NCBI GenBank assembly: GCA_903889895.1
Contig: CAISYZ010000121.1
Coordinates: 1,143 to 65,142 of the forward strand
DNA length: 64,000 nt
Reading direction: 5' to 3'
Source of the DNA: an uncultured Verrucomicrobia subdivision 3 bacterium
Lineage (GTDB): Bacteria; Verrucomicrobiota; Verrucomicrobiia; Limisphaerales; UBA11358
Shown: piece by piece, positions 5,545 to 56,324 of the stretch
How the letters are laid out: every line of letters starts with the position of its first letter
Position numbering within the stretch: the stretch's first letter is position 1
The notes under the pieces: model-generated
The model's input: only the letters and a program-made list of their open reading frames with translations
Databases searched by the model: none
Told to the model about the DNA's origin: nothing
Made by a program: the position numbers and the translations under genes

Positions 5545-6627
5545 TTATTTCCCAGCCTTTTCCCTGTTGTGCTCTTTGCAAAGCATCTCGCAATTTTCAG
5601 GAATGGTCTTGCCGCCATCGTGCCACGGTTTTTTATGGTCGCCTTCCATTTCCTCAAACTTCCATTTCTTTTTTTCTTTGCACTTTGGACAAATTCCCTT
5701 TTGCCTTTCCCATGCCTCACGCTTTTGCTTGTCAGTAAAGGCACGAATGTTCAGGAACTTTTCCTTCCCATTTAGGACATAGGTGTAAATGCCTTTCTTG
5801 TTCGTCACATCCTCATCTTCCATCAACGTTGAGATTCTCTTTTCCAGCTTCTCAGGGTCAGGTTTTTCGTCCTTGTGCACATTGTAGAGACGGCCAAAGG
5901 GCACGCCCTTCATTTCACTACGATACTCTGGAAAGATAGTTTTGACCCATTTGATGACCACTTGAAAATACTGCCACAATTCTTTGGCGTCCTTGTGATC
6001 CTGATGGTCGGACATGTAGCCCTTGATGTCCCCGTTGGAAATCCAGTCAATAACCGTTTCTAAAAATTCCTGTCGAATCGCGACGCCGCTGAGATAGTCG
6101 TCGCCTAACTTTGGGCGATTAGCTTTGGAGAAATACCTTTTAGCATCCGTAACCCATGTCCCTGAGTAAACCGCATTTTTCAATTCTTGGGGTGTCAATT
6201 CTTCGCCAGAAATGTTGATTGTCTCGAACCAGTCCAACCGTTCGCTGTCCGTTCCTGAGCACAGATAAATCGTTAACTTGTAGTCCAAAATCTGTTTCTG
6301 CTCGTCGCCTTGAAGGTTGTGGAACTTCAGACCCTTAATCGAAAAATCCTTGTTCACATACCTACATATCGAAACTGTGCGTTGCTGCCCGTCAATAATC
6401 TCAAAATTGCCATCTGCGCGCACTGACCAATACATGACATTCAAGGGATAGTCCTGTCTGACGGTGTTGATAACAGCGTCTCGCTGCTTGTCCTTGTAAA
6501 TGAACTCGCGCTGATAGGGCGGGCGGATGTCGAGTTTGCCCCCGTAACCGCGAACGCCCTCTTCCTGCTTGTCCTCGTAACCCTTTGTCAGTTCGCGAAT
6601 AGTCAGTTGTAATGGCTGGATTTTCAT
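5545..6627 (-). CDS. DUF262 (GmrS/ParB-like) plus C-terminal HNH endonuclease; putative restriction enzyme
   Basis: DUF262 motifs PPYQREFIY, IIDGQQRT and FETIN; HNH/Zn motif CPKC...EGDHKKPWHDGGKT...NCEMLCKEHN. Start overlaps the MTase stop (ATGA). Lower GC than the flanks. Confidence 0.9.
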   Translation of the reverse strand: MKIQPLQLTIRELTKGYEDKQEEGVRGYGGKLDIRPPYQREFIYKDKQRDAVINTVRQDYPLNVMYWSVRADGNFEIIDGQQRTVSICRYVNKDFSIKGLKFHNLQGDEQKQILDYKLTIYLCSGTDSERLDWFETINISGEELTPQELKNAVYSGTWVTDAKRYFSKANRPKLGDDYLSGVAIRQEFLETVIDWISNGDIKGYMSDHQDHKDAKELWQYFQVVIKWVKTIFPEYRSEMKGVPFGRLYNVHKDEKPDPEKLEKRISTLMEDEDVTNKKGIYTYVLNGKEKFLNIRAFTDKQKREAWERQKGICPKCKEKKKWKFEEMEGDHKKPWHDGGKTIPENCEMLCKEHNREKAGK

Positions 6628-7625
6628 TTTGGTCGTTCTGGATTTTTGTTTCGGATGAATAGGCGTTTGAAAGTTTCCTTGCCATTCAGATAAGAGCCAC
6701 GCCCATAAACCCCGTTCGGGTCTTGATCAACACCACGGTTGCAACCGAGAATCTCGAATTGTTCGGGGTTATACCTATCGAGAAATGTCACGGGCACGCC
6801 CATCACACCGTCGTAGTCAATCGGAATGTCCGCAGTTTTTGACACTTCAATTGCGTCGTAGTTGTCATATTTCGGATAATCTTTGCGATTGTAATTTTTA
6901 AACAAAATCAAATCCTCGTGACGCTTCTTGTTATCAATGTTCGTGAACCAGCAAGTTGTGTTCGTGGAAATGACTCGTTGCCCATTCTCCATACGAGCCT
7001 CAGTCCCACTCAAAGGGTAATGCTCGGGGACGATGAATCCTGAAAAATTGCGGTTACTGTTTACACCAATCCAAAGCTTGTTTTCCTTAATCAGCTTGAA
7101 AACTTCTATGTAGGTTATCACGTTCCAACTGCCGACAATTAGGAATTTCTTCTTGTGCGCCGCAAGTTGCGAAACATATTCCCTGAACAACGAAAAGGGC
7201 GGGTTGGTAACAACAATGTCGGATTGCTTAAGCAACTCAATGCACTCTTGGCTGCGAAAATCTCCGTCGCCCTTCAATTGTTTAATGTCCTTGTCCTTAT
7301 ACTTTGGAACGTTGCCGCCTTCGTCGCCGGTGTATTCCAAGTAAATTGCCCGTTCAACTTTGTGGCGGCTGAACAAATCCGCATCTTGATTCTTGTAGCA
7401 GGTCGTTATCAGTTTCTTCAAACCCAACTCCGCAAAGTTGTATGAAAAATAGTGGAAGAAATTACTTTTGCGAGGGTCGTCACAATTGCAAAACACGGTT
7501 TTCTTTTTGAAGTGCTTAACGTAGTGCGTCAGTTCTCTTTCGATGTCGGCAAGGATCGTGTAGAACTCGTCGTTCTTATCGCTTTTCGCCTTGTTCAAAA
7601 GCTTGTTGGTTGCGTTTCTTGCCAT
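6624..7625 (-). CDS. Adenine-specific DNA methyltransferase, EcoRI family
   Basis: N-terminus MARNATNKLLNKAKSDKNDEFYT...CNCDDP...SNFF closely resembles M.EcoRI; GDGDFRS and the catalytic TNPPFS are present. Confidence 0.93.
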   Translation of the reverse strand: MARNATNKLLNKAKSDKNDEFYTILADIERELTHYVKHFKKKTVFCNCDDPRKSNFFHYFSYNFAELGLKKLITTCYKNQDADLFSRHKVERAIYLEYTGDEGGNVPKYKDKDIKQLKGDGDFRSQECIELLKQSDIVVTNPPFSLFREYVSQLAAHKKKFLIVGSWNVITYIEVFKLIKENKLWIGVNSNRNFSGFIVPEHYPLSGTEARMENGQRVISTNTTCWFTNIDNKKRHEDLILFKNYNRKDYPKYDNYDAIEVSKTADIPIDYDGVMGVPVTFLDRYNPEQFEILGCNRGVDQDPNGVYGRGSYLNGKETFKRLFIRNKNPERPK

Positions 7626-7634
7626 TTTATTTGA

Positions 7635-8099
7635 TCAGTTAAAAAAATTATTTTCGCCGAAAATCCGTTCGAGCACAACCTTGACGTAGTGGCTGGCGTG
7701 CCAGTCGCAGTGGTAATAAAAGCTGCCGGTCTTTTTGAGGACGCGGGCGAGTTGCACGCAGCGCGGGCGCAGGTAGTCAATGTAAGCCCTGGTGTTCTCG
7801 TGGCGGTCTTCAAAGGCGCGCTTCTCCTTGGTCTCGCCCCAGACTGTGCCAGTCCGGCACGGACCGCCGCAATAAACCACGCGGGTGTCGAGGAGGCTGC
7901 CGGGCTTTGCCGGTTTGGTGGTGGTAGGGCGGCGTTGCTGCGCCGCCTTCCCTTCGCCCCGGCTGACCGGCAGGTCAGCCCTACCAGCGGAGGCTGGAGA
8001 AGTTTTCGCGCCGGAAAGCTTTTTGGCCATGCGCGGAAGTTTGCGCGGGAATATTTGCGGCGTCAATTCGGAGTTGGCCGGTTCGGCATTGTTCGGCAC
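7635..8099 (-). pseudogene. N-terminal remnant of an N6/N4 DNA methyltransferase lacking its catalytic DPP(F/Y) segment
   Basis: DTRVVYCG is followed almost directly by WGETKEKRAFEDRH...LARVLKKTGSFYYHCDWHASHYVKVVLERIFGENNF*. The expected D(L/V)IYIDPPF stretch is missing and the gene stops where the EcoRI-like cassette starts. Likely start MAKKL near 8030. Confidence 0.75.
7923..7985. repeat. GTAG-type REP doublet (REPIN-like), 63 bp, inserted in frame
   Basis: Outer inverted arms GGTAGGGC...GCCCTACC with two internal hairpins (ggcggcg-ttgctg-cgccgcc and ggctgacc-ggca-ggtcagcc). Confidence 0.7.
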
Positions 8100-8219: not shown

Positions 8220-8534
8220 ATTTCCCAATATATAGATGGCATTTCCCAAACCTTCGGCGTCGTTCCGCAATATTGCGACACGGTTTCGCAACCTTGGGAA
8301 ATGATTTCCCAATATTGGGAAATCATTTTGAGATATTGCGAAAGGCCGCCAACCCCTTGGGTTGGCAACTTTAACCTTAAAAACCAACCTTCCCCACCCT
8401 GCCCCGGCTCTCCGCAATATTGCGAAATCATTTCGCAATATTGGGAAATGGTTTTGTAACCTTGGGAAATCGTTTCCCAAGGTTGGGAAATGCCGCCGAG
8501 ATATTGCGCCGCGACTTCGTTAGTTTGGGAAACT
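8220..8534. repeat. Tandem array of 21-bp units (15 positions in phase), consensus ATTTCSCAATATTGSGAAAT+1; each unit a 20-bp palindrome
   Basis: Units read directly: 8262 gttccgcaatattgcgacacg, 8283 gtttcgcaaccttgggaaatg, 8304 atttcccaatattgggaaatc, 8409 tctccgcaatattgcgaaatc, 8430 atttcgcaatattgggaaatg, 8472 gtttcccaaggttgggaaatg. Phase is kept across a degenerate 63-bp middle (8346-8408). Confidence 0.92.
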
Positions 8535-8692
8535 CCAGCCACGGACCGCCCCGCCCCGGTCAATTTTTCGGATTTTTTTTAGCGGCGTTAATCCACTTCA
8601 TCAGTATAAGTTATTATAATCAGTTGGTATGACTTAAGCTTATGTCCCACCGTCGGTAAAAAATAATAACAAACGAACAGAAAGAAAAAATC

Positions 8693-9313
8693 ATGATCAT
8701 TAAACCGGCCATTTCATGGCTTAACACAGACTCGGATTCCGAGCTGATCAACGACATCACCGTGGTCATCCTCGGTGTGGGCGGCAACCCGGCCATCTAC
8801 AGCAAACCCACGCCAGACATCCCCTCCATCCAGCTCGCGCTGAATAATTTCAGCACGGGCGTGGCGGCAACCGCGGATGGCGGACCCTCGGTCACGTCCA
8901 AGAAAAACAACCTGCGACTCATTGTCACCGGCATGGTGCGCCAGCTTGCGGGCTATGTGCAGACGGCTTGCGGCGGTGACATGACGAACCTGCTGTTGAG
9001 CGGGTTCCCGGTGCAAAAGCCCACGCGCGCGCCCATCGGCGTGTTGGCTGCGCCTAGCAATCCGGTGCTGGCGCTCGGCACCCGCAGCGGCGAACTGGAT
9101 GCGAGCGTCAACCCGGTGTTTGGGGCCTCTACCTACAACTGGAAGCTCACCAGCAGCGTCGCCGGTGCACCGGTGCTGACGGAGCAGACCACGGCCTCGT
9201 ATGTCACCTTTGCCAGTCTCACGCCAGGTGCGACCTTTACGATGACGTGCTACGTGGTGGGTGCCGCCGGCCCGAGCGATTGGAGCAAGGCTGTCAGCCA
9301 GATGGCGGTGTAA
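8693..9313 (+). CDS. Uncharacterised protein: N-terminal helical domain plus C-terminal fibronectin type III-like domain, no signal peptide
   Basis: 206 aa with a purine-rich RBS region. The C-terminal GELDASVNPVFGASTY...LTPGATF...VGAAGPSDWS is FN3-like. Homologous by eye to 50298..51020. Confidence 0.85.
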   Translation: MIIKPAISWLNTDSDSELINDITVVILGVGGNPAIYSKPTPDIPSIQLALNNFSTGVAATADGGPSVTSKKNNLRLIVTGMVRQLAGYVQTACGGDMTNLLLSGFPVQKPTRAPIGVLAAPSNPVLALGTRSGELDASVNPVFGASTYNWKLTSSVAGAPVLTEQTTASYVTFASLTPGATFTMTCYVVGAAGPSDWSKAVSQMAV

Positions 9314-11992: not shown

Positions 11993-11994
<2 letters not shown>

Positions 11995-12090
11995 TTTGCG
12001 ATTTACGATTGCCGATTTACGATTTGAAAAACGTCCGGACTGTCCGCTTTCCGACATCCATCGTAAATCGCAATTCGTATATCGTAAATT
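11993..12090. repeat. Inverted pair of 7-bp tandem repeat tracts
   Basis: (gatttac/gattgcc/gatttgc)n at 11993-12026 and the complementary (atcgtaa/atcgcaa)n at 12060-12090. Confidence 0.75.
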
Positions 12091-49889: not shown

Positions 49890-50174
49890 TTACGACCCCT
49901 TGAGCGCCTGCAACATCAGATCCGACTGCGCGCCGACCGACTGCACCTCAGCCTGCGTCAGCGGATCCGCGTCGGAGATGTTCAGCGGACTCATCGTCGA
50001 GAGTTGATTATCCAGCGCATCCCAGCGCGCCTGGTGCGCGGCCAGTTGCGCCTGCAACGCGGTCACCTGACTTTGCAGCGCGGTGTTCTGGTCGTTCAAG
50101 GCGTTGAACTGGTTGCGTAATTCCGCCGCCACGATGGGCGCATTGTTCACGGGTAAAGATGGATTGAAAGCCAT
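49890..50174 (-). CDS. Small coiled-coil hypothetical protein, downstream of and co-oriented with the FN3 gene
   Basis: 94 aa: MAFNPSLPVNNAPIVAAELRNQFNAL, a heptad stretch, then DPLTQAEVQ. Confidence 0.75.
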   Translation of the reverse strand: MAFNPSLPVNNAPIVAAELRNQFNALNDQNTALQSQVTALQAQLAAHQARWDALDNQLSTMSPLNISDADPLTQAEVQSVGAQSDLMLQALKGS

Positions 50175-50183
50175 AACAATAGA

Positions 50184-50292
50184 GAATTAAGAATTAGGAA
50201 GGCAGAATGACGAAGGGAAGGCCGTGGCCGGCGACCATGATGCTGACGCGCGGACATTTGCTTCATCATTCATCATTCAACCTTCTGCCTTC
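50184..50292. repeat. Inverted pair of 7-bp tandem repeat tracts
   Basis: gaattaa-gaattag-gaaggca-gaatgac-gaaggga (50184-50218) versus atcattc-atcattc-aaccttc-tgccttc (50265-50292). Confidence 0.7.
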
Positions 50293-50297
50293 GAGGT

Positions 50298-51020
50298 TTA
50301 GGGGACGATCTTCGAGATTTCGCTGCTGAAGTTGCCTTCGCCGCCCGTGCCGATGGCGCGCACGCGCACCCAGATGCGCGCCCCGCTGGTGAAGCCCGGC
50401 AACACCGCCGACGACTTCGTCACGCTCTTGGTCTTGGACCAGCTCGTCGCCGTGAAGGGATCGGGGCTGGTTTGCACCTCGTAGGTTTTGGCGCCGGGCA
50501 CCGGGTCCCATTGCGCATTCAGTTCCCCGTCGTGGTCGCCTGCCGTCACTGCCAGGTTCATCACCTGCGGCGGCACACCCGCCGGCGTCTTGTTGGCGCG
50601 CGAACTGAAATTCGCGCTTTGGATGGTCGCCACCGGATCGGCCGCGCTGGCGGCCGTGAGTTCCACATAATTGCCGCGCTGGGTGAGCGCCGATTCCAGC
50701 GCCGCCCGCGCGGTGTCTTTGTTGGTGGTGGCCAGCTTGGCCGCCGCCTGCGCCGTGTTGAAGGTCCCCAGCGCGGCAGCGTAAGCCGCCCGCACGGACG
50801 TGAATTCCGTCACGGGCGGCAACGGCGTGGTGAAGTTGGGGTTGCCCGTCATCGCCGTCTCGTGCCCCTCCGCGAACGGCAGCAGGTCGTTGTCCGTTTT
50901 ATTGAATAGGTCCAGTTTGACTTTCGCTTTTTTCATGATGTTGAACAGTTGCGGCGGCACCGGGTCGGCGTAAGTCAGCCCGCTGTCATACGTCGAGGAG
51001 GGGTCATCATAGTCGGCCAC
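50298..51020 (-). CDS. Uncharacterised protein: N-terminal helical domain plus C-terminal FN3 domain, no signal peptide (homologue of 8693..9313)
   Basis: GNPNFTTPLP, GNYVE and GELNAQWDPVPGAKTYEVQ...WVRVRAIGTGGEGNFS. Start is either GTG 51020 or ATG 50936. Confidence 0.85.
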   Translation of the reverse strand: MADYDDPSSTYDSGLTYADPVPPQLFNIMKKAKVKLDLFNKTDNDLLPFAEGHETAMTGNPNFTTPLPPVTEFTSVRAAYAAALGTFNTAQAAAKLATTNKDTARAALESALTQRGNYVELTAASAADPVATIQSANFSSRANKTPAGVPPQVMNLAVTAGDHDGELNAQWDPVPGAKTYEVQTSPDPFTATSWSKTKSVTKSSAVLPGFTSGARIWVRVRAIGTGGEGNFSSEISKIVP

Positions 51021-51203
51021 GGCTCTGCCTTTGGTTTAGGTTTATTATGTTTGTTTTCGCTGGCAGGGCAAACCGGCTGGCTTGCTGGGAATGGCGGCGC
51101 CGCAGCGTCGCCCTGCCTTCCCGTTCCCGCTGTCCAATAAACCACGATTCCCCCGCCCGGCCTATTGCTCAATTCGGGAAAAATTGCAATCGGGTCAGGA
51201 CCA

Positions 51204-51518
51204 GGTGGTGCCGCCTCCAAGCCGGCCGGAGGAGATGCAACCCGAAGGAAAATGACTTCTGCCCGAAGTTTAGTCGCTACAACCTTGAGTTTAGCCGTTA
51301 CAAAACTTTGTGCCGTAGCTACCGCTTCAAGTTTAGTAGCTACAAAACTTCGTGTAGTAACTACTGCTTTAAGTTTAGTAGCTACAATTCTTCGTGTAGT
51401 AACTACTAAACATTGTTTAGTAGCTACAACATCAAGTTTAGTAGCTTCAATATTTAGTTTAGTAGTCTCAATATTTAATATTGAAGTTTCAACATTTAAT
51501 ATTGAAGTCTCAAAAACG
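51204..51518. repeat. Tandem array of 21-bp units (12 clear, 51267-51518, plus about 3 degenerate), consensus AGTTTAGTAGCTACAAAACT+1; quasi-palindromic
   Basis: Units: 51267 agtttagtcgctacaaccttg, 51330 agtttagtagctacaaaactt, 51351 cgtgtagtaactactgcttta, 51372 agtttagtagctacaattctt, 51393 cgtgtagtaactactaaacat, 51435 agtttagtagcttcaatattt, 51477 aatattgaagtttcaacattt. Confidence 0.92.
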
Positions 51519-51639
51519 GCCAAAATGGCCAGAAAACCCGTTTTTTTGCCAATTTTGGTGAAAACTGAGGTTTCCGCCCTACCTGCCCTACGCCGCCCAC
51601 GGACGGATGGGGTCCCTTGACCCAGCGGGATAGCATCCG

Positions 51640-53754
51640 TCAGCCCAGCGTCTTGAGCCGGCGATCCAAATCTTTCCGGGTGATGAGGTCGATGACCTGC
51701 AAATGGTCGGGGTGCAGCCGGAAGAGCAGCCGGTAATCCGACCCGATCCGTTGCCGCATCACATTGGGCACGGCCTTGAGCCGGAGCGCGCCGACGAAAG
51801 CCGCCGGTTCGCCCGCCGCCAGCCGCCCCGCCATGATCATGGCGGCCCGGGCGACGGGACGCGGAAAACCCGCGAGCACCAGCTGAAACCCCTTGGGAAA
51901 CTCGATCAGCCGCACCGGGTGGACATCCACCGCATCCGGCGGCAGCAATAATTCGTCCTCGCGGTCCGGGGCTTCCGCCTCCTCGGGCGCCCCGGCGGCG
52001 GCGGCGTTTTGCTGCAGCGTTTCCAGGTGCGCGAGCGCCTGCTGCAAATCGCGCCGCAAATCATTCCGTTCGTGATGCCGTTCCTTGAGCGCTGATTTCA
52101 AGCCGTCCACTTTGCGCCGCAATTCCTTCAGGGCCGGCTCGTCCGCCGGATTGGGCGCAACGGGCGGCACGGGCTGGGCCGGGCCGGCGGCTTTCTGTTC
52201 CCGCCGGCTGATTTCCTTTTGCAGGCGCGCCAGGGATTCCTTGAGTTCCTGCACCTCCTGCGCCTTGGCGGCAAATTTCTGGCGGGTCGCGCGCAGTTCG
52301 GCCGATTCCTTTTTATGCGTATCCTCCGGTTCGGCAAAGCGCTGGTCGAACAGTTCCGCAATCGGGTCGTCCGGCGACAGGTTCAACTGGTCGCGCGTGC
52401 GCAGGATTTCCTCAAACACCCGGCTCGCCTGCTTTTGCGGCAGGATGGGGATGGCGCCGCGCCCGACGAGGATGCCCAGCGCGCGGAAGCGGGAATACAT
52501 CAGCGCGATGGCCGAACCCTCCAGCTCCGCCGGTTCGTCTTCTTTCAGGGCCTCGGTGGCGCTTTCATCCAGCAATTTGATCAGTTCCGCCGGGTCATCT
52601 TCGGCCAGCAACAGCGCCGCGCCCATGTAGATATCATCCGGCAACTTGACCGGGTCGGGATGAACTTTCACCAGCCGGCGGAGCGCGGCCTTGTGCCCGG
52701 CACGGGTGGCCAGGACCATGACCTGCTGCCACAATTCCTTGCGCTCCGGCGCGTAGCCGAGCAGTTCAAAGGCGGTGGCGGCCTGGTCGAACAGATTGCA
52801 GGCGGCGAGCCGCAAAAAATAAGCTTCCCGCAGCGCGGCGGGAATTTTTACGGGATCCAGGCGGGCCAGTTCATACGGCTCGATTTTTTCCAGCCGTTCG
52901 GCGGTCAGGTAATCCTCCAGTTTCGCGCAGAGCTCCTCATGCGTCACCCCGGCCACGTCGGAGGAATGGTGCAGCCGCGCCTCATCCTTGGCGATGCAGC
53001 AGTGCTTGTATTTTTTGCCGCTGCCGCAGGGGCAGCGTTCGTTGCGGCCCACGCGCGGCACGGCCCGCCGCATGGTCTGGCCTTCGGCCAGCGTCTGCTT
53101 GGGTTTTTCGCCCACGTAGTCCAGCATGGATTTCTGGTAACCCGCCAGGATCTGCGCGCTTAACTCCGGGGCACGCGCGTCGAAGTCCTGCCATTCCTTG
53201 GCCGACATGGAGGGAAACCGCTGCCGCAGCAACTGGATCAGCCCGGCATCTTGCGTCAGCCTCGCCAGCAGGCACACGAACGTAAAAATCTTCACCTCAT
53301 CGTCATCATGATTCTTTTGCTTCACCTGCCGGGCCACCGCCCGGACCAGCGGCATGAATTTATCCGGCAGCACGCCGCCACGATGATCCCGGCACCACGC
53401 CCACAGCAGATGCAGCGCCGCCGCCTCGCACCCCCGGTCCAGCCGCGTCGTCGTCAGCGCCGTGAGCAAGGGCTCCACGATGTCCCCGTGCATCCGCACC
53501 ACCACCCGGCCCATCCAGCCATAGTAGGGAAACATCATCGCACCGCCGGCCAGATGCCGCGCGTCCATCCGCCGGCCCGCGCCCGCCGCCGCCACGAACA
53601 CATACATGAACCACTTGAGATTCTTGGACGCCACCACCTCGGCCAGCAGTTCATCCAGCGCCGCGTCCTCCGCCGGCAGCAGCTTGATGGTCTGCTCCAC
53701 CACCGACAGTTGAAACTGGGTCTCCTCGATGAACTGGCTCAATTCAGGGCTCAT
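51640..53754 (-). CDS. SEC-C zinc-motif protein with helical repeats, a coiled coil and a C-terminal RelE/ParE-like domain
   Basis: [19 protein letters not shown]; coiled coil around aa 480-590; C-terminal [21 protein letters not shown]...[10 protein letters not shown] resembles the RelE/ParE fold. Confidence 0.75.
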
Positions 53755-54146: not shown

Positions 54147-54914
54147 CTAAAGCTTGAAATCTGAAGCACTTTTTTCAACCTCATATTCATAGTCATTAAC
54201 CAATTGCTCGTAAGACAAAAATTTGACTCGTTTTGGCGCAACGATTTCTTGGAATGCAGCAGATTGAAGACGACTATCAAATTCCTTCCTCCGGTTTGCT
54301 GCGGATACAATTACCATTCGCGAATAGAAATCTTGCAGGTCATTAAACTTGATTAGCGAATTTTTCATGTCCGTTCCGTGCTCAACCTCAAAGAATGAAT
54401 TTGGCATCTTTCGCTCATTGAACCAAATCACGTCAACCGTGGAGCTGCGGTCAACGAGATGGTCATAGGAGAATGCCGGGATGGTCTGCAAGCTACGCAT
54501 CGAACCCAAAGATTCATTCAGAAATTTTTTATTCTTGTCCTGATTAGGAGACCAGCAATCCAATTTGCGCAATTTGCCAATGATGAGCAAAAGACCCTGA
54601 TAGTAGGTGTGACCAAAGGAAGCAACCTCGTTAGAATCTTTATTCTTGGCCGTCTCTTCAATCATCCCCTTCGATTCGTTATCGGTCTTTTTTGAAACCA
54701 ATCCATAGAGTCCTGGTTTGATTTTATAAATGGCCTTGTTGAGTTGGACAATGCGTCGAATGCTCGCCGTTGGCGTCTTCGTGCCCCAAGCACATTCTTT
54801 GATTTTGAAAACCTCGGAGTATAGCTGGCCCAGAGTTGCGACCCCACCAAGACTTTCCATCGTGCTAATTACCGCCTCATGCTGTGTCATGGAATAAAGA
54901 ATTACTCCGCTCAC
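54147..54914 (-). CDS. Putative restriction endonuclease: N-terminal winged HTH plus PD-(D/E)xK-type domain
   Basis: LGGVATLGQLY...KTPTASIRRIVQ (HARE-HTH-like); HTYYQGLL...VDVIWF...FFEVEH; AT-rich; directly downstream of an MTase. Confidence 0.75.
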   Translation of the reverse strand: MSGVILYSMTQHEAVISTMESLGGVATLGQLYSEVFKIKECAWGTKTPTASIRRIVQLNKAIYKIKPGLYGLVSKKTDNESKGMIEETAKNKDSNEVASFGHTYYQGLLLIIGKLRKLDCWSPNQDKNKKFLNESLGSMRSLQTIPAFSYDHLVDRSSTVDVIWFNERKMPNSFFEVEHGTDMKNSLIKFNDLQDFYSRMVIVSAANRRKEFDSRLQSAAFQEIVAPKRVKFLSYEQLVNDYEYEVEKSASDFKL

Positions 54915-54923
54915 AAATCAATG

Positions 54924-56324
54924 TCACGGCTTTATTCTCAAAATCTCCGTCTCGCATTTGACGATATGTGTGGTCTCGCGTTTCTTGCCGTTCGGCGTTT
55001 TCGCCCACGCTTCTTGCAGGCTCACATCCACGGTCGTATGCACCACCGCGCCGCGTTCCACTTGGGCAGCGGAAAGGAACACGAACTTGCATTCGTGATA
55101 AATCCTTTCGGTTGGCACTGCCGGTTTGTCGTCCACAACTGATCCTTTGATCGAATTTAAAAACAGATCAAGATCATTTTCGGTAAAAATTGCTACGGTT
55201 AGTAGCACTTGATGCTGACGCAACCAAATGTTGATTATTTCGCCATCAATGCGTTTCTCGGCAAGTTTGGCATGGTTGGCGTCGAGTTCGATACCGACGC
55301 AGCCGCGTTTTAATCTAATGGCCGCGACGGCCGTCGTGCCGCCGCCGAGAAACGGGTCGAGCACCAAATCGCCTTCGTTGGTGGAGGCCAGCAGGCAACG
55401 CTCTATCAGGGCCACGGGCTTTTGCGTGGGATGTTTGCCAAAGGTCTTCTCCGCCCCGCTGGGCGCGGTCATGGTCCAGATGGGGGAAATATCGAATTCA
55501 GAATTTCGAGTTTCGAATTCAGACTTCGCAATTGTCCCCGGTTCGTCATTCGCAATTTGAAATTCGGAATTTCTCCAGACGGTTTTCATCTGCTTGCCGG
55601 TCACCTTGCGCATCTCCTGATAGTTGAACCGGTGCTTGCTCTTTTCATTCTTCGCGGCCCACAAAACGGTCTCGGTGCTGTGCGTGAAGTAGCGGCAGGA
55701 GAGATTCGGCGGCGGGTTGGGTTTCTCCCACGCGATGTCGTTGAGCAGCTTGTAGCCGAGCTGTTGCAGGGCGTAGCCAATGGAAAAAATGACGTGGTGG
55801 GTGCCGGAAACCCAGAGGGTGCCGTTGGGCTTGAGGACGCGCTGGCAACGCTTGAGCCATTCCCGGTTAAACTCGTGGTTGAGTTCGGGTCCGCGGGATT
55901 TGTCCCAGTCGCCCTTGTCCACCTTGACCATTTTGCCGGCGTGGCAACTGATGCCGCCGTTGGAGAGAAAATACGGCGGGTCGGCAAAGATGGCATCGAA
56001 GCGGCCTTCGGGATATTTGGCGGCAATGGCATCGAGGAGTTCAAGGCAGTTGCCCTGATAGAGCCAGAGCGCGCGGTCGGGGTCGGCAAAAGCAAGCCGG
56101 GGCGGGTCCTGCGGACGGCCACCGTGCGGATGGTCACCATTTTCTGCTCGGTGGCTCGGTGGCTCGGTGGCTAACTGGATGCTGCCGTCGTCCTTGAGTT
56201 CAAAGGGCAGTGTGGCCACGGGTTGGCCGTGAACAAAGTCAGCGTCAGCGTTGGCGGGAGCCGGTTTTGGCGCCGGAGGTTTCTGGCGGTAAAGGGGTTT
56301 GTCGGATTTGGGCTTGCGCGGCAC
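54924..56324 (-). CDS. Beta-class N6-adenine DNA methyltransferase (DpnA/M2.DpnII-like) with N- and C-terminal extensions
   Basis: IFADPPYFLSNGG, KGDWD, WEKPNPPPNLSCRYFTHSTE, KQMK.VW, HPTQKP and LDPFLGGGTT motifs. Confidence 0.92.
   Translation of the reverse strand: MPRKPKSDKPLYRQKPPAPKPAPANADADFVHGQPVATLPFELKDDGSIQLATEPPSHRAENGDHPHGGRPQDPPRLAFADPDRALWLYQGNCLELLDAIAAKYPEGRFDAIFADPPYFLSNGGISCHAGKMVKVDKGDWDKSRGPELNHEFNREWLKRCQRVLKPNGTLWVSGTHHVIFSIGYALQQLGYKLLNDIAWEKPNPPPNLSCRYFTHSTETVLWAAKNEKSKHRFNYQEMRKVTGKQMKTVWRNSEFQIANDEPGTIAKSEFETRNSEFDISPIWTMTAPSGAEKTFGKHPTQKPVALIERCLLASTNEGDLVLDPFLGGGTTAVAAIRLKRGCVGIELDANHAKLAEKRIDGEIINIWLRQHQVLLTVAIFTENDLDLFLNSIKGSVVDDKPAVPTERIYHECKFVFLSAAQVERGAVVHTTVDVSLQEAWAKTPNGKKRETTHIVKCETEILRIKP
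55487..55575. repeat. 7-bp repeat tracts inserted in frame in the MTase
   Basis: atcgaat-tcagaat-ttcgagt-ttcgaat-tcagact ... attcgca-atttgaa-attcgga-atttctc; encodes RNSEFQIANDEPGTIAKSEFETRNSEFDIS. Confidence 0.7.

Follow-up and report, generated by a model that had tools for sequence, protein, structure and literature searches.

We describe a tandem array of 21-bp units in a 64,000-nucleotide stretch of DNA (the window; contig CAISYZ010000121.1, here C121) from an uncultured Verrucomicrobia subdivision 3 bacterium of the Limisphaerales, where it lies upstream of a gene for a protein with an FN3 domain. The array is enclosed by two conserved elements, D and P. Its copy number is polymorphic, and the interval from D to P keeps an exact 21-bp register at all loci in which both elements were located. 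A protein would, we infer, bind the array, loop it or spread along it, and affect expression of the gene. D, the array and P may together act as a length-variable, helically phase-locked spacer, or as a periodic protein scaffold, that tunes expression, a plausible reading whose chances we put somewhat short of even. The source runs containing the 64-kb stretch are labelled as freshwater, lake-water and permafrost metagenomes.

Array anatomy and the register between D and P

The arrays and the elements around them are as follows (window coordinates).

51267..51518, no strand: clear array of 12 units of 21 bp, with core GTAGCTAC and distal units that drift to AATATTGAAG..TTCAA
51506..51577, minus strand: element D, 72 nt, with A/T tracts every 10-11 bp, from an alignment of 14 orthologous distal flanks and an nhmmer profile
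51192..51266, no strand: spacer in 21-bp register without recognisable unit sequence, part of the D-P interval
51159..51191, minus strand: element P, a conserved operator-like palindrome (GATTGCRAT, about 11 nt, ATYGCAAT), from an alignment of 11 orthologous upstream regions
8221..8530, no strand: sister array (copy 1) with units TTTCCCAATATTGGGAAATCA, about 6 units, a 63-bp gap and about 6 units, all in phase

Tandem Repeats Finder (TRF) gives a period of 21 with 11.0 copies at 51267-51498, a 42-bp higher order with 3.4 copies and 82% matches at 51288-51429, and a distal sub-array of period 21 with 3.2 copies at 51447-51513. The GC content of the array is 0.32, compared with about 0.6 in the surrounding DNA. 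The proximal clear unit begins 247 bp 5' of the GTG codon at 51020, where the open reading frame (ORF) 50298-51020 of the minus strand starts. These measurements agree with a preliminary description made from the sequence alone, in which an AT-rich array of 12 clear units with a 42-bp higher order was placed about 250 bp upstream of the FN3 gene. In the phase used there, the unit at 51330 is self-complementary at 9 of 10 pairs, and the divergent unit at 51477 retains the dyad symmetry ascribed to it (8 of 10). Three further degenerate units reaching to 51204 had also been proposed; they persist by register, as an in-phase spacer, but not by sequence, the units at 51204-51266 being self-complementary at only 3-4 of 10 pairs. 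Homology to a sister array on contig C156 begins near 51255. Since the units abut head to tail, a CRISPR array, in which unique spacers of similar length part the repeats, was rejected.

Measured from where D ends to where P begins, the distance equals 2 mod 21 at 13 of 13 loci with both anchors, some of these loci being related to one another (strings and regular expressions anchored 10 of 10 loci; nhmmer profiles anchored 13 of 13, adding the window, its paralogue on contig C143 and locus L155). The D-P lengths are 233, 275, 296 (two loci), 317 (two), 338, 359 (two), 443 (three) and 485 bp, i.e., eight distinct values from 11 to 23 units. As a control, the distances from P to the start codon (117-284 bp) scatter mod 21 among the 10 string-anchored loci, and indels of 1 nt and 11-12 nt were found just downstream of P in the orthologue alignment. 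Much of the length variation in this stretch is due to other hairpin elements, of the CTCTCTCCCCGCC..GGGGAGAGAG type, that some orthologues (L144, L146 and L148) carry as insertions between P and the start codon. Because the D-P distance is always 2 mod 21, the whole interval, including the 75 bp at 51192-51266 that lack recognisable units, behaves as a spacer whose length varies in whole units alone.

Whole-unit differences were found in all four other homologous comparisons: 42 bp between the arrays of the window and L141, 84 bp between C121 and C143, a single 252-bp gap (12 units) between C132 and C215, and 21 bp between C190 and C215 (by arithmetic from array coordinates). The paralogue on C143 shares both flanks of the window array, with 96% identity over 74 bp for D and 90% over 94 bp for P, but has a different array. 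In the window, the P profile matches at C121 position 52333 (window 51191), and D overlaps the last array unit and contains a terminator-like hairpin (51517-51531).

The link between array and gene is conserved, as a 21-bp-period array lies upstream in 17 of 17 metagenomic orthologous loci with protein identity of 58-100%, where some arrays were detected only as periods 42 to 126 and L150-L153 are near-duplicates. These orthologous arrays end 197-662 bp from the start codon. Of 31 genome-contig loci, several of them with only a short upstream stretch, 15 also have an array upstream, as do 4 of 10 loci in relatives. The orthologous units vary from the GTAGCTAC type through to unrelated types such as CCATGG or GCAAGC. 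The copy number also varies: a metagenome contig with an identical protein carries exactly one extra 42-bp higher-order unit (14 versus 12 units), and L150 has 7.7 copies versus 8.7 in L151-153. Thus, a tandem repeat with copy number polymorphic between close strains lies 5' of the gene, as in a promoter-proximal variable-number tandem repeat. A junction in one DNA run that leaves out 51192-51504 belongs to the paralogue on C143 and is not a deletion.

The proposed module consists, in order, of D, n × 21 bp, P, and then the promoter with the FN3-family gene. Given that 21 bp make two turns of B-DNA, a change by whole units would alter the length between D and P but not the rotational setting of one relative to the other. 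A protein or complex would bridge D and P, either looping the spacer or polymerising along it in 21-bp steps, and would touch a short core in each dyad-symmetric unit. Gain or loss of units would then tune the transcription of the FN3-family gene heritably.

Symmetry, coding potential, folding and curvature of the units

Covariation between the two arms of the unit was measured on 61 units, taken from five GTAGCTAC-family arrays; the figures are inflated because the units are related. In this set 68.0% of cells are paired, compared with 63.6 ± 1.1 in shuffles (0 of 500 reach the observed value), the covariation score is 0.226 versus 0.183 (0 of 500), and slid controls pair at most 49.8%. Over 53 arrays the aggregate z is 4.4, with only 9 arrays above 2. 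The covariation that the preliminary description had asked about is therefore detectable but modest.

The same description had suggested co-evolution of cognate proteins and sites as one possibility. The arrays would then be operators for sequence-specific dimeric regulators, each array titrating or cooperatively binding its own helix-turn-helix (HTH) protein. The units are operator-sized palindromes with covarying arms, XRE HTH genes adjoin five arrays, and an ArsR-like winged-helix sequence was noticed by eye in ORFs beside two more, without a profile match. However, two XRE-array-gene cassettes, on contigs C132 and C215, have flanks that are about 90% identical, including the ends of both flanking genes, and XRE and downstream proteins that look nearly identical when read from the sequences, whereas their arrays are alike only in a 5-nt core, AAGTT, recurring every 21 columns. 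Near-identical proteins thus flank unrelated arrays, which speaks against co-evolution with the neighbouring proteins. Furthermore, the units of a single array are not alike at mirrored positions, the reading calls for some 30 or more different regulators, and no regulator gene adjoins the window array. We consider operators of this kind unlikely.

A protein-coding heptad repeat, with seven codons per unit, would account for the open frames that cross the array on both strands. Such frames are expected of any palindromic unit that contains no stop codon and is divisible by three in length. Variability along the units has no 3-base periodicity (P < 0.05 in 1 of 48 arrays; mean z of -0.45), and changes are not concentrated at the third codon positions of one frame. 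The coiled-coil gene that the preliminary description had set as an alternative was accordingly rejected, and the chance that the array is coding appears negligible.

Another explanation invokes the structure of the nucleic acid itself, i.e., hairpins or cruciforms that serve as a terminator, an mRNA stabiliser or a supercoil sink in the manner of repetitive extragenic palindromes (REPs) and bacterial interspersed mosaic elements (BIMEs). The array strand folds at -110.2 kcal/mol (z of -7.06 versus shuffles), arrays occur in operon gaps and 3' regions like REPs, and a terminator-like hairpin is present at the distal edge of the array. Selection on nucleic-acid structure had been suggested; at the RNA level it is not borne out by the mismatches on the sense strand, as G-T (G-U in RNA) and A-C mismatches are balanced (201 versus 215); the orthologues give 179 versus 127, a difference driven by related arrays. 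Half of the arrays are also without clear symmetry, no Rfam 15 family was matched (best score 31.8 bits versus a gathering score of 110), and the RAYT of this genome has REPs of another kind, tagged with GTAG, on its flanks. A role through hairpins or cruciforms is, in our judgement, quite improbable.

Intrinsically curved DNA could arise if a 21-bp period sums bends in phase upstream of a promoter. The period equals two helical turns, and D has its A/T tracts every 10-11 bp. Against this, by predicted end-to-end ratio, 53 arrays are no more curved than column-permuted controls (mean percentile 0.47), and the window array is among the straightest (ratio 0.969, percentile 0.935); given the wedge parameters used, these results are indicative only. 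Curvature is a very unlikely explanation.

Genome-wide distribution, mobility and turnover

The genome was scanned with TRF in its 4.14-Mb, 76%-complete assembly, and rows with at least three copies were counted. Period 21 accounts for 74 rows, period 42 for 29 and period 63 for 7, with at most 18 for any other period of at least 8, in keeping with the earlier view that the geometry is hard to put down to chance. Once merged, the rows amount to 61 arrays, 67-670 bp long and each built from a unit of its own, which replaces the two-copy system first proposed. At least 7 of 10 dyad pairs were found in 30 of the 61 consensus units, compared with 7.4% of 5000 random 21-mers. Dyad symmetry is therefore common but not universal, and the palindromic geometry that the preliminary description saw in both window arrays holds for those two but does not extend to all.

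Two families of genes encoding proteins of about 230 amino acids (aa), both combining a helical N-terminal part with a C-terminal beta-sandwich, have arrays 5' of them. Among the 16 small members of the FN3 family, 10 are preceded by an array at 169-261 bp, and for one of these 10 the long ORF call overlaps it; in the second family the figure is 8 of 9, at 45-233 bp. With genes called by codon usage, 22 arrays lie in tandem, 17 in convergent and 11 in divergent contexts, and 11 at contig edges.

The arrays group into sequence families, and arrays related to copy 1 occur on contigs C229 and C192. No universal core was found, the best k-mers recurring in 7-8 of 56 arrays (95th percentile of the null maximum, 6), nor was a dyad grammar common to all arrays. 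A search for a universal flanking motif by k-mer enrichment gave only partial motifs (ACGGGAA at 14 arrays, AATTGGC at 12), and some motifs of this type are degenerate array units. The AAGTT core, often ACGAAGTT, stays in phase in otherwise fully diverged arrays (C132, C215, L141-L150); it is present in at least half of the units in 7 of 56 arrays, five of which lie beside the two gene families or an XRE partner. In 179 kb of another genome of the genus, period-21 arrays number 0, although the sampled lengths of four relatives (179, 38, 55 and 40 kb) are too small for a firm statement on array density. Heptamer (7-bp) tandem repeats are also over-represented, with 71 TRF rows of at least three copies versus at most 7 for periods 5, 6 and 8. 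They are intergenic, occur in the window at 11993-12025, 12060-12089 and 50262-50279, and number 12 in the 179 kb of the other genome; a link to the 21-bp arrays (7 × 3 = 21) is possible.

Some arrays are, by comparison with relatives, recent insertions. The C156 array is collinear with the window array unit by unit, with one 21-bp indel, and lies in an insertion of about 530 bp (C156:3219-3779, L042) between nfeD and an SPFH gene, which nearly abut without an array in 19 of 19 relatives examined. The insertion also carries a terminator-like hairpin and a sigma-70-like promoter, and may have rewired the nfeD-SPFH operon. Inspection by eye for terminal inverted repeats or a target duplication gave only a doubtful match, and no other copy of the insertion flanks was found in the genome. 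Similarly, the upp array is missing in 16 of 16 relatives and the nhaP array in 12 of 12.

Such mobility would also be expected of a neutral or selfish minisatellite, in which one ancestral 21-bp array was duplicated and inserted at further sites, the period survives unequal exchange while the sequence is renewed by it, symmetry comes from template switching in quasi-palindromes, the link to gene families is co-duplication only, and the register reflects nothing but in-register slippage. The sequence families, the C156, upp and nhaP arrays that relatives lack, the occurrence of all context classes, the polymorphic copy number and the lack of period-21 arrays in the sampled genome of the genus are consistent with this explanation. 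On the other hand, 17 of 17 orthologous loci have kept the array although bacteria usually show a deletion bias, both ends of the interval (D and P) are conserved, and there is no net small indel in any of the 13 D-P intervals (233-485 bp), whereas neighbouring non-coding DNA has them. A purely neutral or selfish origin is the chief rival of the phase-locked spacer and a possibility to be taken seriously, though the odds are against it.

The phase-preserving spacer, on the other hand, is favoured because the D-P distance is constant mod 21 while the P-to-start distance scatters, because the four other homologous comparisons differ by whole units, and because the array is retained at all 17 orthologous loci while the nfeD-SPFH, upp and nhaP arrays, which stand beside housekeeping genes, are missing in relatives. 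It is further favoured by the conservation of D and P while the units between them turn over, by the non-coding nature of the array, and by enriched dyad symmetry, covarying arms (as expected of dimer sites) and an AAGTT/ACGAAGTT core that persists in phase.

Several observations weigh against it. No candidate for a protein binding the array was found. Unit sequences differ even between orthologues at 81-85% protein identity, so that a protein reading them would have to put up with change at most positions. Multiples of 21 would also arise from whole-unit slippage by itself, and the register argument consequently rests on the lack of small indels; moreover, the 13 D-P loci are partly related, with three pairs or triples of equal length. 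Looping depends less on torsional phase once the distance exceeds about 300 bp, and the arrays show no excess of predicted curvature. Finally, only 18 of the 61 arrays lie 5' of the two gene families and 43 lie elsewhere, with 17 of the 50 classifiable arrays between convergent genes; the specificity for FN3 genes supposed at first is thereby lost.

Neighbouring genes and comparison with known systems

The genes and promoter match beside the two window arrays are as follows.

51044..51071, minus strand: sigma-70-like promoter, matched by consensus only (TTGCCC, 16 nt, CATAAT)
50298..51020, minus strand: FN3-family gene, 240 aa, with a disordered conserved N-terminus, a helical domain (43-135) and an FN3 domain (about 149-240)
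49890..50174, minus strand: 94-aa coiled-coil ORF downstream of the FN3-family gene
8693..9313, plus strand: homologous 206-aa family gene downstream of the copy-1 array

The protein encoded at 50298-51020 matches the Pfam fn3 profile (PF00041) below its cut-off (E of 0.003; 18.2 bits versus 25), and paralogues score 29.1 and 29.2 bits. In its AlphaFold model, with a predicted local distance difference test (pLDDT) score of 84, the C-terminus is an FN3 fold (Z of 16.1 and root-mean-square deviation of 1.2 over 90 residues versus FN3 domains), and Foldseek also matches FN3. Structure searches with the whole model, including the N-terminal helical domain, were filled by FN3 matches, PHROGs matches are to only the FN3 part of tail-protein families, and protein atlas matches are to hypothetical proteins only. 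Among 228 homologues, those with names are all 'hypothetical protein'. The GTG start at 51020 is conserved across aligned homologues, and no signal peptide was evident. Residues 1-20 (MAxYDSxxxTYDSGxxYD) are nearly invariant in 27 homologues and predicted to be disordered, and paralogues have W/Y-N/D-rich variants (TWNSG, WDSG..PSYLLEPGDPGY); this N-terminus may be a targeting or packaging signal. The genes beside the two window arrays are homologous, as had been noted (BLASTP E of 1e-08, 26% identity over 160 aa).

The 94-aa ORF has weak coiled-coil Pfam matches only. Homologous 94-aa ORFs follow two other family members, and a cluster of three 94-aa ORFs lies about 1 kb from arrays A8, A16 and A19. 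Contigs from two RNA libraries cross the junction with the FN3-family gene (50080-50391 and 50091-50262), and the two genes are probably co-transcribed. The RNA contigs are confined to 50080-50391, with none on the array, which is no evidence of absence. The promoter match was the one found, versus 0.6 expected in shuffles, and promoter motifs between arrays and family genes are heterogeneous when read by eye. Also by eye and unscored, a perfect CRP-type palindrome, TGTGA-N6-TCACA, was seen between array and gene in two paralogues (C144:36852-37079, C166:2369-2538), and a sigma-54-like TGGYAYG-N4-AAGCT in copy 1 (window about 8643-8659) and C166.

Directly upstream of D lies a gene (51640-53754, minus strand) for a 704-aa protein with a SEC-C motif and a weak C-terminal ParE-like toxin domain (E of 0.00039). 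Restriction-modification genes neighbour both window arrays. Near copy 1 (5545-8099) these are GmrSD/HNH, an EcoRI-type methylase and a truncated N6_N4 methylase; near the array beside D and P (54147-56324) there are an N6_N4 methylase and a 255-aa ORF.

Full-text literature searches returned no description of such arrays, or of a promoter spacer with fixed phase and variable length. We raise, as a doubtful possibility, that the arrays form an undescribed class of regulatory DNA in Limisphaerales, i.e., self-renewing mobile minisatellites, with a period of exactly two helical turns, serving as length-variable but phase-preserving rulers or tracks from a conserved nucleation element to an operator near the promoter. 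If so, dozens of accessory genes would have individually tunable, heritable expression, and new insertions such as that between nfeD and the SPFH gene would rewire their neighbours. Should the register be selected, the arrays would be a natural experiment in helical phasing, with a hypervariable spacer free in length but fixed in phase, and selection would account for the presence of 61 arrays with the same exact period in one genome. It would also offer a way into how large unannotated gene families are regulated in uncultured freshwater and peat Verrucomicrobia, and anchor distance mod 21 would be a simple sequence test transferable to other repeats. Should the register be only mutational, the arrays would be a clean model of concerted evolution and mobility in bacterial minisatellites.

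Among known systems, contingency loci have repeats with units of 1-7 bp that act by changing spacing or phase, e.g., the 7-bp repeats before hmw1A and hmw2A in Haemophilus influenzae, the nadA TAAA tract and the Helicobacter sabA T-tract rheostat. The arrays resemble them as tandem repeats 5' of a promoter with strain-variable copy number, expected to tune expression. They differ in that the unit spans two full helical turns, so that phase is kept, and in being 230-490 bp long, dyad-symmetric, sequence-renewing and flanked by conserved D and P.

REPs are extragenic palindromes, tandemly reiterated in places, with a genome-wide consensus and a GTAG/CGTC tag (PMC3733652). The arrays are likewise extragenic palindromes, sometimes in tandem, found in operon gaps and 3' regions and mobile, but each has its own unit, the 21-bp period is strict and there is no common tag. 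Membership in REP/BIME was rejected, as the 61 arrays have different consensus units and share no GTAG/CGTC tag; GTAG is present in the core of the array at 51267-51518 but is not general among arrays. RAYT-associated repeats were also rejected: PF01797 genes exist in the genome, and the one on contig C23 is flanked by hairpins of the GTAGCCCACAGC type rather than by array units. At C23:3650-4750, this Y1 (RAYT-like) transposase gene and its GTAG-tagged REP hairpins, 484 bp from array A2, are a classical REP system distinct from the arrays.

Copies of the Neisseria dRS3 element have conserved ends and alternate with longer RS segments. Like dRS3 in Neisseria intergenic mosaic elements, which often lie near surface-protein genes, the arrays are made of intergenic dyad-symmetric repeats of about 20 bp; unlike them, the units stand head to tail without spacers and are locus-specific. 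Plasmid iterons and centromere-like repeats (parC, tubC) are also phased short repeats, cooperatively bound and specific in sequence to each replicon, but they are direct repeats, whereas the arrays are palindromic and 61 of them occupy one chromosome. Pfam scans of the genes next to the array at 51267-51518, and of 94 of the 188 ORFs that neighbour arrays (those beside the first 29), showed neither rep nor par genes.

Finally, phase-dependent looping between the lac, ara, gal and deo operators uses spacers of unique sequence and fixed length. The arrays share with it two conserved sites whose separation is held to whole helical turns, whereas the spacer between D and P is a minisatellite whose length varies by 2n turns.

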